From Candidatus Cloacimonadales bacterium (GTDB lineage Bacteria > Cloacimonadota > Cloacimonadia > Cloacimonadales > JAFGVF01): 64,000 nucleotides of DNA. Positions within the stretch are counted from its first letter, which is position 1; every line of letters starts with the position of its first letter. The position numbers and the translations under genes were made by a program. A model generated the notes under the pieces. It did no database searches, was not told the origin of the DNA, and worked only from the letters and a program-made list of their open reading frames with translations. The DNA is taken from the NCBI GenBank assembly GCA_963678315.1, contig OY782781.1:2848001-2912000 (forward strand), in the 5' to 3' direction. Below are positions 22,780 through 28,905 of the stretch, piece after piece.

Positions 22780-22819
22780 TAGCTAAAAGATTAGACTTGT
22801 AATCTTAAATCTTGCTTTA

Positions 22820-22982
22820 ACCCATTTGATGCAGTAGGCTTCTCGTGAAGAGTGCAGATTATTTCAGCAAAATAAGTTACAGAATCGAAGTTTGAATAAT
22901 ATATATTCTAGCTGAGATTATGGAAGTTATTCTTGCCAAATAATATAGTACTATTCTAGAAGTTCTACTGTATTAGATGGGT
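22820..22982 (+). repeat. 163-bp stem-loop repeat (MITE-like), copy 1, empty
   Basis: ACCC...GGGT ends with a 19-bp terminal stem, TTA on both flanks; aligns end to end with the reverse complement of 28638-28830. Confidence 0.85.
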
Positions 22983-23118
22983 TTAATATTAAGCGCTTCC
23001 TGCATCAAATAACAAATTAATGCAGGAGGAGCAAGGGCGCATAGGCAGTATTGAGTGGGTAGTAGGACTTCAAGTTGCTAGATTTCTAATAGCATTCGAG
23101 TCAGATGCTATCCATAAA

Positions 23119-26067: not shown

Positions 26068-26667
26068 ATGTCTTTTTTAGATAGTCCTGATATGGCATAC
26101 TTATTGCCAATAATAATATTCTTATCAAGAATTGTTGATGTTTCACTGGGAACACTTAGAATTATATTTGTTAATCGTGGTATGCGTTACATTGCCCCTG
26201 TTATAGGGTTTTTTGAAGTGCTAATATGGTTAATTGTTATTGGCCAGATTATGCAAAGAATTTCTAGTCCAATTAATTACATTTCTTATGCAGCTGGCTT
26301 TGCTGCAGGTAATTATATAGGTATTTTGCTAGAATCTAAGTTAGCAGTTGGACTTACCATGCTAAGAATCATTACTAGAACTAGAGCTAAAGAACTTATT
26401 GTCTCACTCAGAGAAATGGGATATCGTGTTACTCATGTTCCAGCTGAAGCGAACTCTGGTAAAGTACAAGTTATCTTCTTACCAACAAGAAGAAAAGAAA
26501 TTCCTAAACTAATAAATATTGTTCAAGCATATAACCCTAATGCTCTTTATACTATTGAAGATATGCGTTCAGTTTCTATGTGGTCTATACCAGGGACCCA
26601 ATTAAATACCAACAGAAGAGACAGACCTTATTGGAGACTTTATAGGTTTAAAAGAAAAGGGAAGTAG
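26068..26667 (+). CDS. DUF2179/UPF0316 family membrane protein
   Basis: RIVDVSLGTLRI, GFFEVLIW, YAAGFAAGNYIG motifs. Confidence 0.85.
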   Translation: MSFLDSPDMAYLLPIIIFLSRIVDVSLGTLRIIFVNRGMRYIAPVIGFFEVLIWLIVIGQIMQRISSPINYISYAAGFAAGNYIGILLESKLAVGLTMLRIITRTRAKELIVSLREMGYRVTHVPAEANSGKVQVIFLPTRRKEIPKLINIVQAYNPNALYTIEDMRSVSMWSIPGTQLNTNRRDRPYWRLYRFKRKGK

Positions 26668-26688
26668 ATATTCTCTTTAGCCCTACTT

Positions 26689-26723
26689 CTACCTTTAAGA
26701 AATAGGCTTTTTCTTAAAGGTAG
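26689..26723. terminator. Perfect 14-bp hairpin after the DUF2179 gene, next to the intron 3' end
   Basis: CTACCTTTAAGAAA / TTTCTTAAAGGTAG. Confidence 0.55.
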
Positions 26724-26730
26724 AGTTAAA

Positions 26731-28637
26731 GTAGAGTAGAGACAGGTTTTCACCTGCCCCCCTCTTCAAACCGTGCATGCGGTTTTCCCGCACACGGCTT
26801 ACCGACAAAGTTCTTTCTAAGCTTTCACAAGTTTGTCAGGGTGTTCTGTATGCTAAGTTATATAGACCATAATACCTAATTAACTTGGCATGAGCATTTT
26901 GACGATAAAGCTTACAGCTCTTCTGACTCTTGCGTTTGTAATACCTCTTTAAACTAAAAAAGAGATATGTATTAACACTATCTTTGGCTTTAGCTGGGTA
27001 GCTTACTTTTGGTATTGTGAAGTAGTTAACCCAACCTCTTAATATGGGATTGAGTTTCTTTACTAAAGTATAATTAGATGAGTGTCCATTATTCATAAGA
27101 CAATGTTTTATATTTGCCTTGAACTTTTTGACACTCTTTTTACTTGGAATAACATTCCAGTAATAACCATACCAATTGTAAAAAGATTTATCAAACCTAA
27201 AAGTAAAACCTAAAAAGTCAAAGGATAGCTTTGTTGCATTCAAGTGTTTCGTTTTTTCCATGTTAATGGTTAATTCCATTTTCTCTAGTATTCTGTGTAA
27301 ATACGATAAGCATTCTTTAGGTATTTTATTTCCCATTAGGATAAAGTCATCAGCATAACGAACTATTTTTATGCCTCTTTTAGCGAAAAAATCCATCTTC
27401 TCTATTGACAGCTTTATCAACAAGATTTAAGTATATATTTGCTAGTAAAGGAGAAATAACGCCTCCTTGAGGTGTTCCCTTTTTACTCTTGTGCAATTTA
27501 TTCTTTTCAAAGTATGGTGCTTTTAACCACATTTTAATAAGTTTTAATACTCTTTTATCTGTTATTCTTCTTTCAACAAGATACATCAGTTTATCGTGTG
27601 GAATATTATCGAAATAACCTGATAAATCAGCATCATATACTTCTGTTTTTCCAGCCTTTAGATTAGACTTAATTTCCTTTATAGCTCCATGTGCTGAACG
27701 CTTTGGTCTGAAACCATGAGAACAATCTTCAAAGTCTGCTTCAAAGATTGGTTCTATTATTAGTTTACAACACATCTGAACAACTCTATCTTTGATAGTT
27801 GGAATTCCTAATGGTCTCATTTTACCATTTGCTTTTGGAATATATACTCGAAGTATTGGAGATGGTTTATAAGTTGCATCTTTTAGTTCTTGTTGAATTT
27901 CAAAGAGAAAGTCTGTTACTCCATATTCTTCAATATCAGAGAAACTCTTCTTATCATATCCTGCAATCCCATTGTTCAACTTCACCCTTCTCCAAGCTTC
28001 TGTTAGAAAATATCCCACTGTTAACTTATCATACAATACATAAAAACGAAAATCCTTTTCATGTTTGGCTTTAGAATATAATTTACGTTGAAAAATTCGA
28101 ACTCTTTCTTCAGCTGTTAAATCAGCCTTTCGTTTGCTTGTTAGATTTTCATCAATCACAACTTTCTCCTTATCTTGTAAATTTCTTTGAAGTAATGCCC
28201 CTTCGCTACTTTTGAGTTATGTTGTCTCAAATATCATCACTACTATGGGCATCTCCGACTGCCTAAATAACTGGATTTCACTTCGACACCGTCTTATAGA
28301 AATCCATTTAGGGTTGTCACCTCTTATTAAATAGGCTCTCTCACGTTTAATGTGCAATCGTTTATAAGCACGCCACCAGTTATAACTCCGGTAATCTTTG
28401 ATAGTGCATACTTCTGTTTCTTCCTATCAAATAGCAGGTTTCATCCTCTGGGAAAGATTAACCGATTACAATTGCCTAACGAAGCTACCTGTTCGCTTAC
28501 GCTACGGCTTACTTACCGATTCAAAGAGCTTCAAACTAAACATTACTGTATTAGTTTGTCTTTTTCACTTCTGGTTGAACAGAAAATTAACCAGACTGGA
28601 TTTTCACCAGTTGACGGCACACCACCTCGTGACGCAC
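26731..28637 (-). mobile_element. Group II intron (1907 nt), RT/maturase without endonuclease domain
   Basis: 5' GTGCG at 28637; domain V AAGCCGTGTGCGGGAAAACCGCATGCACGGTTT and domain VI ending CTCTACTCTAC at 26731; removing it restores the end of the 163-bp repeat. Confidence 0.92.
26836..28159 (-). pseudogene. ltrA: Group II intron reverse transcriptase/maturase, split by a one-base frameshift
   Basis: RPLGIPTIKDRV, GFRPKRS, GTPQGGVISPLLANIYL in the first ORF; RYADDF, FDFLGF, LNPILRGWVNYF in the second; frames join if one base of the 6-nt run at 27386-27391 is removed. Confidence 0.88.
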
Positions 28638-28830
28638 CCCAAATAATGCACTAGGATTTAAAAAATAGCACTATATTATTCCTGTGAGGGCGTAGCTTTA
28701 GCGAAGACTCATGGCAAGAATAACTTCCATAATCTCAACTAGAATATATATTATTCAAGCTTCGATTCTGTAAGATATTTTGCTGAAAGAATCTGCACTA
28801 TTTCCATAAAGCCTAATGCATCATCTGGGT
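28638..28830 (-). repeat. 163-bp stem-loop repeat, copy 2 (carries a 31-bp insert; interrupted by the intron)
   Basis: Colinear with copy 1 apart from 28681-28711; its final T and the TTA flank are at 26730-26727. Confidence 0.85.
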
Positions 28831-28905
28831 TAAAGGAAAAGACTTTAATAACAATCTTTTAGATTTTTATCTTTTCTAAAGAGCAAAATCACTACTTCAG
28901 ACAAA

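Follow-up and report, generated by a model that had tools for sequence, protein, structure and literature searches.

A group II intron was identified in a 64,000-nt stretch of the genome of a Candidatus Cloacimonadales bacterium (contig OY782781.1, positions 2,848,001 to 2,912,000; hereafter the window), where it is inserted at the outer tip of a terminal inverted repeat (TIR) of a miniature inverted-repeat transposable element (MITE). The observations taken together are likely explained by a mobile E/F-type intron lacking an endonuclease (En) domain, which homes to MITE TIR tips and whose reverse transcriptase (RT) is produced from two overlapping reading frames. The analysis showed site specificity across copies and species, co-variation of exon-binding site 1 (EBS1) with the 5' exon, and an RT-gene frameshift that is conserved and separates two halves which are both under purifying selection; the natural homing site appears from the flanking sequences to be the outer TIR tip of a MITE family with many copies dispersed in these Cloacimonadales genomes. 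The source genome (G000) consists of one contig of 2,988,751 bp with 32.8% G+C, and intron copies were sought in 40 relatives, among which G009 belongs to the same family as G000.

The intron and the elements surrounding it are represented by the following features (window coordinates).

26731..28637, minus strand: group II intron, 1907 nt, 5' end GTGCG, 3' end CTCTAC (RF02003 and RF00029 matches; identical second copy)
26768..26800, minus strand: domain V, AGC triad, 5-nt loop GAAAA (Rfam alignment and sequence)
28638..28829, minus strand: occupied MITE, 192 bp, core plus 31-nt optional module (family alignment, TIR scan, fold)
28830..28834, minus strand: target-site duplication TTTAA, upstream copy (family alignment, TIR scan, site census)
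26726..26730, minus strand: target-site duplication TTTAA, downstream copy, i.e. the first five bases of the 3' exon, of which the +1 T is the presumed intron-binding site 3 (IBS3)
22821..22981, plus strand: unoccupied 161-bp MITE from a sister subfamily, with TTTAA at 22816-22820 and 22982-22986

The intron runs from 28637 (GTGCGTCACG...) to 26731 (...CTCTACTCTAC) and was recognized by Rfam models at both ends, i.e. RF02003 (group-II-D1D4-4; 64.2 bits, cut-off 49) over 28613-28477 and RF00029 (domains V-VI; 56.8 bits, cut-off 40) over 26802-26731. It possesses a GUGYG-type 5' end, a domain V with a catalytic triad, a domain VI and an RT/maturase in domain IV, as expected for a group II intron. 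The AGC triad reported in an initial annotation of this DNA was recovered, whereas the description of domain V as full-length had to be corrected, as this domain comprises 33 nt with a 5-nt loop (hairpin GCGG-GAAAA-CCGC). The 5' exon of the window copy ends in ...CCTAGTGCATTATTTGGG and the 3' exon starts with TTTAACTCTACC; excision of 26731-28637 fuses ...CTAGTGCATTATTTGGG to TTTAACTC, and the fused flanks were confirmed to match, without gaps, the terminal part of the unoccupied repeat (22821-22981; ...CTACTGTATTAGATGGG, then TTTAAT) together with its TTTAA flank. The junction 15-mer alone was not found above chance (7 matches with at most three mismatches versus 5.18 expected), and support for the empty site is derived from alignment of the whole element rather than from this 15-mer alone.

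Comparison of both window copies of the repeat against the whole genome by BLAST identified 44 loci, of which 28 are full-length. Alignment of these 28 copies with the 2 occupied sites revealed a 161-bp core with optional modules of 20 and 31 nt, corresponding to an element of 161-192 bp bounded by 18-nt TIRs (CCCAGATGATGCATTAGG / CCTAGTGCATTATTTGGG) with subfamily variants. Of 14 unoccupied TIR pairs, 11 had identical flanking 5-mers (TTTAA, TTAAA, TTTAT or ATTAT), and three showed a single-base difference. Based on its TIRs and these identical flanks, the repeat, which is short, non-coding and present in many copies, is a MITE with a 5-bp AT-rich target duplication; members of this family are also present in G009. 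The same 5-mers place the intron exactly between the last TIR base (...TTTGGG, the right tip, which abuts intron base 1) and the duplication TTTAA, and not one base inside the element end as had initially been proposed. In read contigs, the loose ends of other MITE copies begin exactly at 28638, and no read contig joined 26730 to 28638, meaning that no empty allele was seen, although such contigs are unable to show its absence. As single-stranded DNA, the empty MITE was predicted to form one long hairpin (-31.1 kcal/mol; z-score of -7.6; none of 200 shuffles as stable), while the hairpin of the occupied MITE had a z-score of -3.3; the lowest pair of the MITE hairpin is the TIR tip.

A second intron copy in G000 (G000:C1:982661-984567) was shown to be 100% identical to that in the window; its 5' exon ends in ...GCTTAATGCATCATCCGGG, the intron is followed by TTTAAC, and the site is a solo TIR-like remnant between genes for an ABC-2 transporter and an SNF2-type helicase. 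Among the relatives, G009 harbours six full copies at 92% identity and one 5'-truncated copy, G005 one full copy and G001 one 3' fragment. Nine sites (two in G000, six in G009 and one in G005) had a readable 5' flank, and all nine exhibited a TIR-like ...TGCAnnAnYTGGG or a close variant thereof. At 11 sites the 3' flank was readable, beginning with TTTAA or TTAAA in ten cases and with TTCAT in one, the +1 position being T (the presumed IBS3) in all 11. Copies in unrelated sequences, which the initial annotation had named as the sign of a one-off insertion, were not encountered, since the second G000 copy, the six G009 copies and the G005 copy are all located at ...TGCAnnAnYTGGG followed by TTWAA.

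At six of the nine sites the MITE is complete and its partner TIR lies 161-192 nt upstream; for five of these six, the 5-mer preceding the partner TIR is identical to that following the intron. Both MITE end types are occupied (L007/L033 versus L035-L037), and the remaining three sites, without a partner TIR within 300 nt, represent solo TIR remnants. In G009, no differences were found among five of the introns, and the remaining one departs from them at 4 of 1905 bases; the MITEs that host them, in contrast, share only ~70-80% of their sequence. The presence of identical introns in dissimilar MITEs indicates that the intron moved by itself, and the G009 pattern reads as the signature of recent, independent retrohoming rather than of passive spread with the MITE.

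Recognition of the target was examined using a consensus fold of domain I from 12 related introns (RNAalifold), in which 48 of 89 pairs exhibited compensatory changes. Besides the EBS1 hairpin, the fold displayed another hairpin in the Id arm, whose loop comprises 19 nt. In introns of classes E and F, alpha' would be expected at the tip of a DId3 stem-loop, along with an extra bulge loop; no convincing candidate for the alpha/alpha' pairing was found in the fold. The following features were assigned.

28447..28452, minus strand: EBS1 CCCAGA, intron nt 186-191, in the 8-nt terminal loop of domain I (consensus fold, eight co-varying variants)
28638..28643, minus strand: IBS1 UUUGGG, the last six bases of the 5' exon (complementary to EBS1, one G-U pair)
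28402..28409, minus strand: candidate EBS2 AUGCACUA, intron nt 229-236, complement of exon positions -16 to -9 (UAGUGCAU) (complementarity, tentative)

The expected pairing of EBS1 with TTTGGG was thereby borne out: the CCCAGA loop is complementary to UUUGGG at the window copy (one G-U pair), to UCUGGG of the other TIR type (perfectly) and to UCCGGG at copy 2 (one mismatch). Its identification as EBS1 is based on co-variation of this loop with the 5' exon in eight related lineages, each variant matching its own exon end (CCCAGA/UYUGGG, CCCAAU/UUUGGG in G005, AGGGG/CCCCU, CAGAG/CUCUG, CGGAU/AUYCG, CUGACA/UGUCAG, CAGAU/AUCUG and CAGGUG/CACCUG). The intron RNA would accordingly find its site by ordinary base-pairing of the 6-nt EBS1 with the last six TIR bases (UYUGGG), possibly accompanied by pairing of a 5-8-nt EBS2 with the conserved UGCAU further into the TIR, and the first base (T) of the AT-rich target duplication would act as IBS3. 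With EBS1, EBS2 and IBS3 at these positions, reverse splicing would land exactly at the TIR/duplication junction, and the presence of the same sequence on opposite strands at both MITE ends would provide one site per orientation per MITE. Solo TIR remnants would also serve as targets, with the MITE hairpin being a by-product and not the signal. As the protein lacks an endonuclease, priming presumably proceeds from replication-fork DNA, and we infer that retrohoming takes place at replication forks.

Potential targets were found to be abundant. Matches to the 22-nt target consensus with at most two mismatches numbered 52 in G000, 205 in G009, 227 in G005, 180 in G001 and 41 in G007, as opposed to none for the reversed 22-mer pattern. 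Together with the nine TIR-like 5' flanks, these 41-227 look-alikes per genome uphold the earlier proposal of a dispersed repeat acting as a multi-copy target, which may confer a safe-harbour benefit. A pairing scan of G000 yielded 88 sites at which IBS1 pairs completely and no fewer than six of eight bases pair at the candidate IBS2; 35 of these fall in the MITE loci listed, several others represent solo tips, and mononucleotide shuffles yielded 25-45 sites. The unoccupied site ~4 kb away to which attention had initially been drawn does exist, but represents a weak target, as the ends of this empty MITE (..GATGGG and ..AATGGG) pair with four of the six EBS1 bases and neither is among the sites pairing at all six. 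A much better empty site is the other, unoccupied end of the occupied MITE (genome position 2876829, on the side of window position 28829), at which IBS1 pairing is six of six.

In G000, the cumulative GC skew is lowest at about 0.74 Mb and highest at about 2.01 Mb, and both intron copies point with the replication fork. In G009, for which twenty 20-kb stretches were coarsely sampled, the sign of the skew changes between 1.42 and 1.60 Mb; six of the seven copies point with the fork and one (1.57 Mb) is ambiguous. Insertion into the lagging-strand template has been described for RmInt1 and RmInt2 (PMC4615759; PMC8914252), and the orientation of the copies fits such insertion. The dnaA gene of G000 (G000:C1, 1105068-1106375) lies ~365 kb from the cumulative GC-skew minimum near 740000, and seven 246-aa open reading frames (ORFs) in this genome with weak matches to the DnaA model are probably IstB-like ATPases of an insertion sequence (IS).

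The intron-encoded protein (IEP) is specified by two overlapping ORFs.

27380..28159, minus strand: IEP ORF1, 259 aa, RT blocks 0-4, ending in ...NREDGFFR*
26836..27384, minus strand: IEP ORF2, +1 frame (AKRGIKIVRYADDF...), RT blocks 5-7 and maturase domain X, no endonuclease domain
27380..27394, minus strand: shift site GGA TTT TTT CGC TAA, +1 reading TTC GCT AAA, in 11 of 11 copies

The read-through protein (P0001; 440 aa, with an X at the break) matched RVT_1 (1.5e-38), GIIM (8.2e-11) and TIGR04416 (399.8 bits, cut-off 300), carried the previously reported N-terminal motif FQRKLYSKAKHEKDFRFYVLYDKL of the RT, and displayed no HNH or other endonuclease match, the protein ending after domain X. 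The site GGA-TTT-TTT-CGC-TAA is present in all 11 copies spanning it (two in G000, seven in G009, and one each in G005 and G001, i.e. four genomes), and a metagenome contig at 91% identity (L066) contains the same motif with GGT, which makes the run T7. Four 259-aa clusters at 92, 91, 90 and 79% identity to ORF1 were identified in the protein database, while the next relatives of ORF1 (at most 76% identity) comprise 440-446 aa. At 20 more distant loci, an ORF of at least 250 codons upstream of YADD was observed in all except the 91% contig. The junction aligns gap-free with intact homologues (DGFF-X-KRG versus DG.F[HYS]K[YH]G), and contigs of three sequencing runs from three studies, one run possibly being the source sample, span the intron without an indel.

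Both halves of the gene were shown to be under selection in their own frames. Substitutions between G000 and G009/G005 at codon positions 1, 2 and 3 numbered 7, 7 and 52 for ORF1 and 12, 6 and 45 for ORF2, with ratios of non-synonymous to synonymous substitution rates (dN/dS) of 0.05-0.06 and 0.06-0.08, respectively; wrong-frame controls gave 1.7-2.9, and dS between the frameshift-bearing lineages was 0.41-0.65. The occurrence of the same frame structure in many sources, along with selection on both halves, indicates that the RT gene is neither mis-sequenced nor dead, and the recent burst in G009 indicates that the element is mobile in its frameshifted state.

The RT split, being conserved in all copies, points to programmed recoding in view of the selection on both halves and the recent G009 burst. 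CGC is the second-rarest sense codon in G000 (0.9 per 1000 codons in 1177 long ORFs), and the sole tRNA-Phe has the anticodon GAA, for which the +1 codon UUC is a better partner than UUU. Known programmed +1 sites, such as prfB (CUU-UGA) and Ty1 (CUU-AGG), combine a slippery P-site codon with a slow A-site codon. By analogy, the tRNA at the present site would likewise gain a better match by shifting to +1 beside a slowly decoded A-site codon, and the features of a programmed +1 frameshift (a conserved site, P-site re-pairing, a slow A-site codon and selection in both frames) all appear to be present at the sequence level. Full-length RT would most likely be made by a programmed +1 ribosomal shift, with the ribosome pausing at the rare codon CGC and tRNA-Phe moving from UUU onto UUC. 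Transposases of IS1 and IS3 are controlled by -1 shifts, the enzyme being made only after recoding; recoding of a mobile-element enzyme would be common to both systems, but the IS shift is -1. We give an even chance to the more specific proposal that the RT/maturase is made only through the programmed +1 shift (UUU-CGC read as UUC-GCU), and that this arrangement has long been kept (at ORF1 identities as low as 79% in the clade), throttles the RT in the manner of an IS transposase and, together with homing to both tips, renders the intron a low-burden, self-limiting retroelement.

With regard to its class, the intron is of E/F type (IIB-like), as judged from hallmarks and one labelled reference, and is probably class F in the wide sense. 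Without its ORF, the ribozyme encompasses ~580 nt (1907 nt minus an ORF of ~1320 nt), within the 450-700-nt range of classes E and F, for which a 5-nt domain V loop (instead of a GNRA tetraloop) and small size are described as hallmarks (PMC3753933); the En domain is described as absent from classes C, D, E and F (PMC4424553). An intron on Nitrobacter hamburgensis plasmid 1 matched RF02003 at 102 bits and was found to possess a 5-nt loop (GAAAT) and a protein with 42% identity; Ni.ha.I1 is assigned to class F, group g3 (PMC3552965). Relatives at 69-80% identity are located in repeats of the type ...ATTCGTGTnATTCG/ (the slash marking the insertion point), which carry IBS1 AUUCG and IBS2 CGUGU, the same motifs as printed for the class F intron Ge.ur.I1-1 (PMC3753933). 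Class C membership was rejected, in line with the initial annotation, based on the 6-nt co-varying EBS1, the AGC triad, the 5-nt loop and the three of nine sites without a hairpin. A tblastn search of plasmids for the class returned best matches at 39-48% identity with generic 'ltrA' names and no class information, and a literature search at title and abstract level for the class of RF02003 yielded nothing useful. Tandem heptamer-like repeats (...ATTCGTG..ATTCG/ or ...ATCTGTG..ATCTG/) were observed to host the relatives L011, L022, L039-L042 (G040), L068 and L159, in which EBS1 is altered to match their exons.

Homing by RNA pairing was weighed against recognition of DNA structure as in class C, whereby the MITE hairpin itself would be recognized, insertion would occur at its foot and sequence would play a minor role. 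Class C introns are reported after terminators and other inverted repeats (PMC1702495), and the geometry initially described, i.e. insertion at the foot of the stem, was retained, as the MITE is a long hairpin, the intron starts right after its lowest pair and this arrangement holds at six of the nine sites. The hairpin as target was not retained, given the three sites devoid of a partner TIR. In addition, the bases pairing with EBS1 lie inside the MITE stem, where folding would hide them; together with the three hairpin-less sites, this indicates that the hairpin is incidental. Co-variation of a 6-nt EBS1 with the exon in eight lineages and a domain V with AGC and a 5-nt loop further render structure-directed targeting very unlikely, IIC introns being described as lacking part of EBS1 and all of EBS2 (PMC3753933). 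That the copies instead spread as passengers of MITE transposition or duplication, or reflect chance one-off insertions, is barely plausible. MITEs are mobile and repeated, and duplication of an intron with its flank does occur here, as the other G000 intron family shares flanks (96% over 2124 nt). However, the two G000 copies of the present intron are 100% alike while only 13 of the last 18 exon bases are shared, the G009 copies are at both end types of MITEs that are ~70-80% alike, and the rest of the MITE is absent at three sites.

For the RT gene, two further explanations were considered besides programmed ribosomal frameshifting. RNA polymerase slippage on the U6/U7 run, or a two-polypeptide RT in which ORF2 is translated from an in-frame ATG or TTG, is possible but would seem the less probable course. 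The site is a T6 run (T7 in contig L066), the +1 frame in G000, G009 and G005 is K-M-D-F-F-A-K-R, in which an ATG precedes the junction by four codons, and selection on both halves fits any route to the protein. Conversely, runs of six are short for efficient transcriptional slippage, the ATG is absent in L066 (+1 frame G-R-L-V-F-F), the fused product can be aligned with intact homologues at every residue without gaps, and re-pairing from UUU to UUC beside the second-rarest codon fits classical +1 sites. A broken RT gene, arising from a mis-sequenced homopolymer or representing a pseudogene in an intron moved by another intron's protein, is highly improbable. The genomes are single-contig metagenome-assembled genomes, in which homopolymer errors may occur, a second intron family is present in G000 and ORF-less relatives exist; yet the same frame structure is found in four genomes and in a separately assembled metagenome contig with T7, four 259-aa protein clusters are derived from other sources, contigs of three runs lack an indel, and dN/dS is ~0.06 for each half in its own frame at a dS of 0.41-0.65.

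Several observations weigh against a mobile, tip-homing intron with a recoded RT. Occupancy is low, with 2 occupied sites versus 52 empty look-alikes in G000, such that a few percent are used. The candidate EBS2 is located 3' of EBS1, partly in a conserved stem, and hardly varies while exons differ, and may be a structural motif instead; two G009 sites pair at only three of five bases with it, and at the site of copy 2 both IBS1 and the candidate IBS2 contain a single mismatch. For IIE/IIF introns, splicing in vitro is described as not requiring EBS2 (PMC3753933). The replication-strand call for G009 is derived from noisy sampled skew, and the E-versus-F label from hallmarks and one labelled reference (42% amino acid identity) rather than from a tree. 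Concerning the RT gene, the ATG in the +1 frame four codons upstream of the junction in G000 and G009 makes a separate second polypeptide possible, and a stimulatory element that would promote the shift was not identified. One RNA run (X18) yielded nothing for the window, and splicing, mobility and frameshifting are deduced here from DNA sequence.

The closest parallel is RmInt2 of Sinorhizobium meliloti GR4, a class D intron experimentally shown to home into the inverted repeats of ISRm17 (PMC4615759). Both introns lack the En domain, all copies of both are located in inverted repeats of transposable elements, and each element offers two sites on opposite strands; EBS/IBS pairing with tolerated mismatches and a bias towards the lagging-strand template are also shared (PMC4615759). 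The Cloacimonadales intron differs in being of E/F type rather than class D, in using a non-coding MITE and solo ends rather than a transposase-bearing IS, in inserting exactly at the TIR/target-duplication junction and in its frameshifted RT gene; furthermore, RmInt2 homing was demonstrated by experiment, whereas that of the present intron is read from sequences. RmInt1 in ISRm2011-2 is likewise an En-less intron with a multi-copy mobile element as its homing site (PMC1802570). It differs from the present intron in belonging to class D. RmInt1 is also said to occupy an internal position of the IS, in the transposase gene or close to it, and not a TIR tip.

The class F introns Ge.ur.I1, Pe.th.I2 and Ni.ha.I1 resemble the Cloacimonadales intron in their small IIB-like ribozyme, 5-nt loop and En-less IEP of ~440 aa (PMC3753933, PMC3552965), and the N. 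hamburgensis plasmid intron belongs to the same Rfam D1-D4 family, with 42% protein identity. In contrast to these class F introns, the present lineage has a frameshifted IEP and targets MITE tips instead of heptamer-like repeats. Class C introns following terminators or attC sites also insert immediately 3' of a stem in non-coding DNA and encode an En-less IEP (PMC1702495, PMC3753933), but the present intron has a 6-nt co-varying EBS1, AGC and a 5-nt loop, and uses stemless sites. A literature search at title and abstract level revealed nothing on introns in MITEs.

The targeting is a further instance of a known TIR-homing behaviour, as in RmInt2/ISRm17, here observed in another intron class and on a non-coding element; it extends that strategy to both. 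Supported by nine independent sites and by eight EBS1 variants that co-vary with their exons, it constitutes a clean natural targeting example in which an E/F-type intron is specialized on the tips of selfish elements and a nearby hairpin is not the targeting signal. The part for which no description was found is the RT-gene frameshift, which is both conserved and under selection, and which is weightier than the targeting result: in literature searched mostly at title and abstract level, no report of recoding in group II intron proteins was encountered. If true, recoding would represent an added means of protein control in group II introns, and no group II intron protein before this one would have been recoded; pipelines that label such RT genes 'pseudogenes' would then misjudge active retroelements. 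A compact En-less intron with a 6-nt main determinant and built-in dosage control may also be of interest to targetron builders.

Regarding the MITE family, the 20-nt hairpin insert (TCCGTCTAAGCCGGACACGG) and the 31-nt insert (TGAGTCTTCGCTAAAGCTACGCCCTCACAGG) were observed to combine differently among copies. A search of G000 for an autonomous parent returned no TIR pair 600-6000 bp apart enclosing a matching transposase. The sole long TIR pair was rejected as the parent transposon, as it encloses an unrelated IS4/IS5-type IS (DDE_Tnp_1) with its own ends, which landed in a MITE remnant. This IS (L226; G000:C1:1246908-1248524, ~1.6 kb), of which further copies are located near 1667860 and 2192883, encodes a 385-aa transposase and has ends ..AGCATACCCCC and 8-13-bp duplications.

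In the window, a terminator-like hairpin at 26685-26727 (CTACCTTTAAGAAA ... TTTCTTAAAGGTAG) is situated directly 3' of a DUF5698/DUF2179 gene (26068-26667, plus strand) and starts 7 nt into the 3' exon of the intron; from its position after this gene, the occupied MITE and the intron are flanked by genes that converge on them. Derivatives of this type of intron that lack the ORF were also observed: contigs of runs X1 and X3 join window positions 26799 and 28198, skipping 1398 nt, i.e. the whole RT gene, with short sides of 22-31 nt, and in G019 (contigs C114 and C219) the matches for domain I and domains V-VI are ~75 nt apart. Finally, a second, different group II intron family is present in G000 at approximately 1079300-1081000 (minus strand) and 2505150-2507060 (plus strand) (L003-L006). 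Its two copies, 96% alike over 2124 nt with flanks included, exhibit a 339-aa ORF and a 5-nt domain V loop, and adjoin GC-rich hairpin repeats (GCCAGC-N4-6-GCTGGC) followed by GTTCG or GTTCC.

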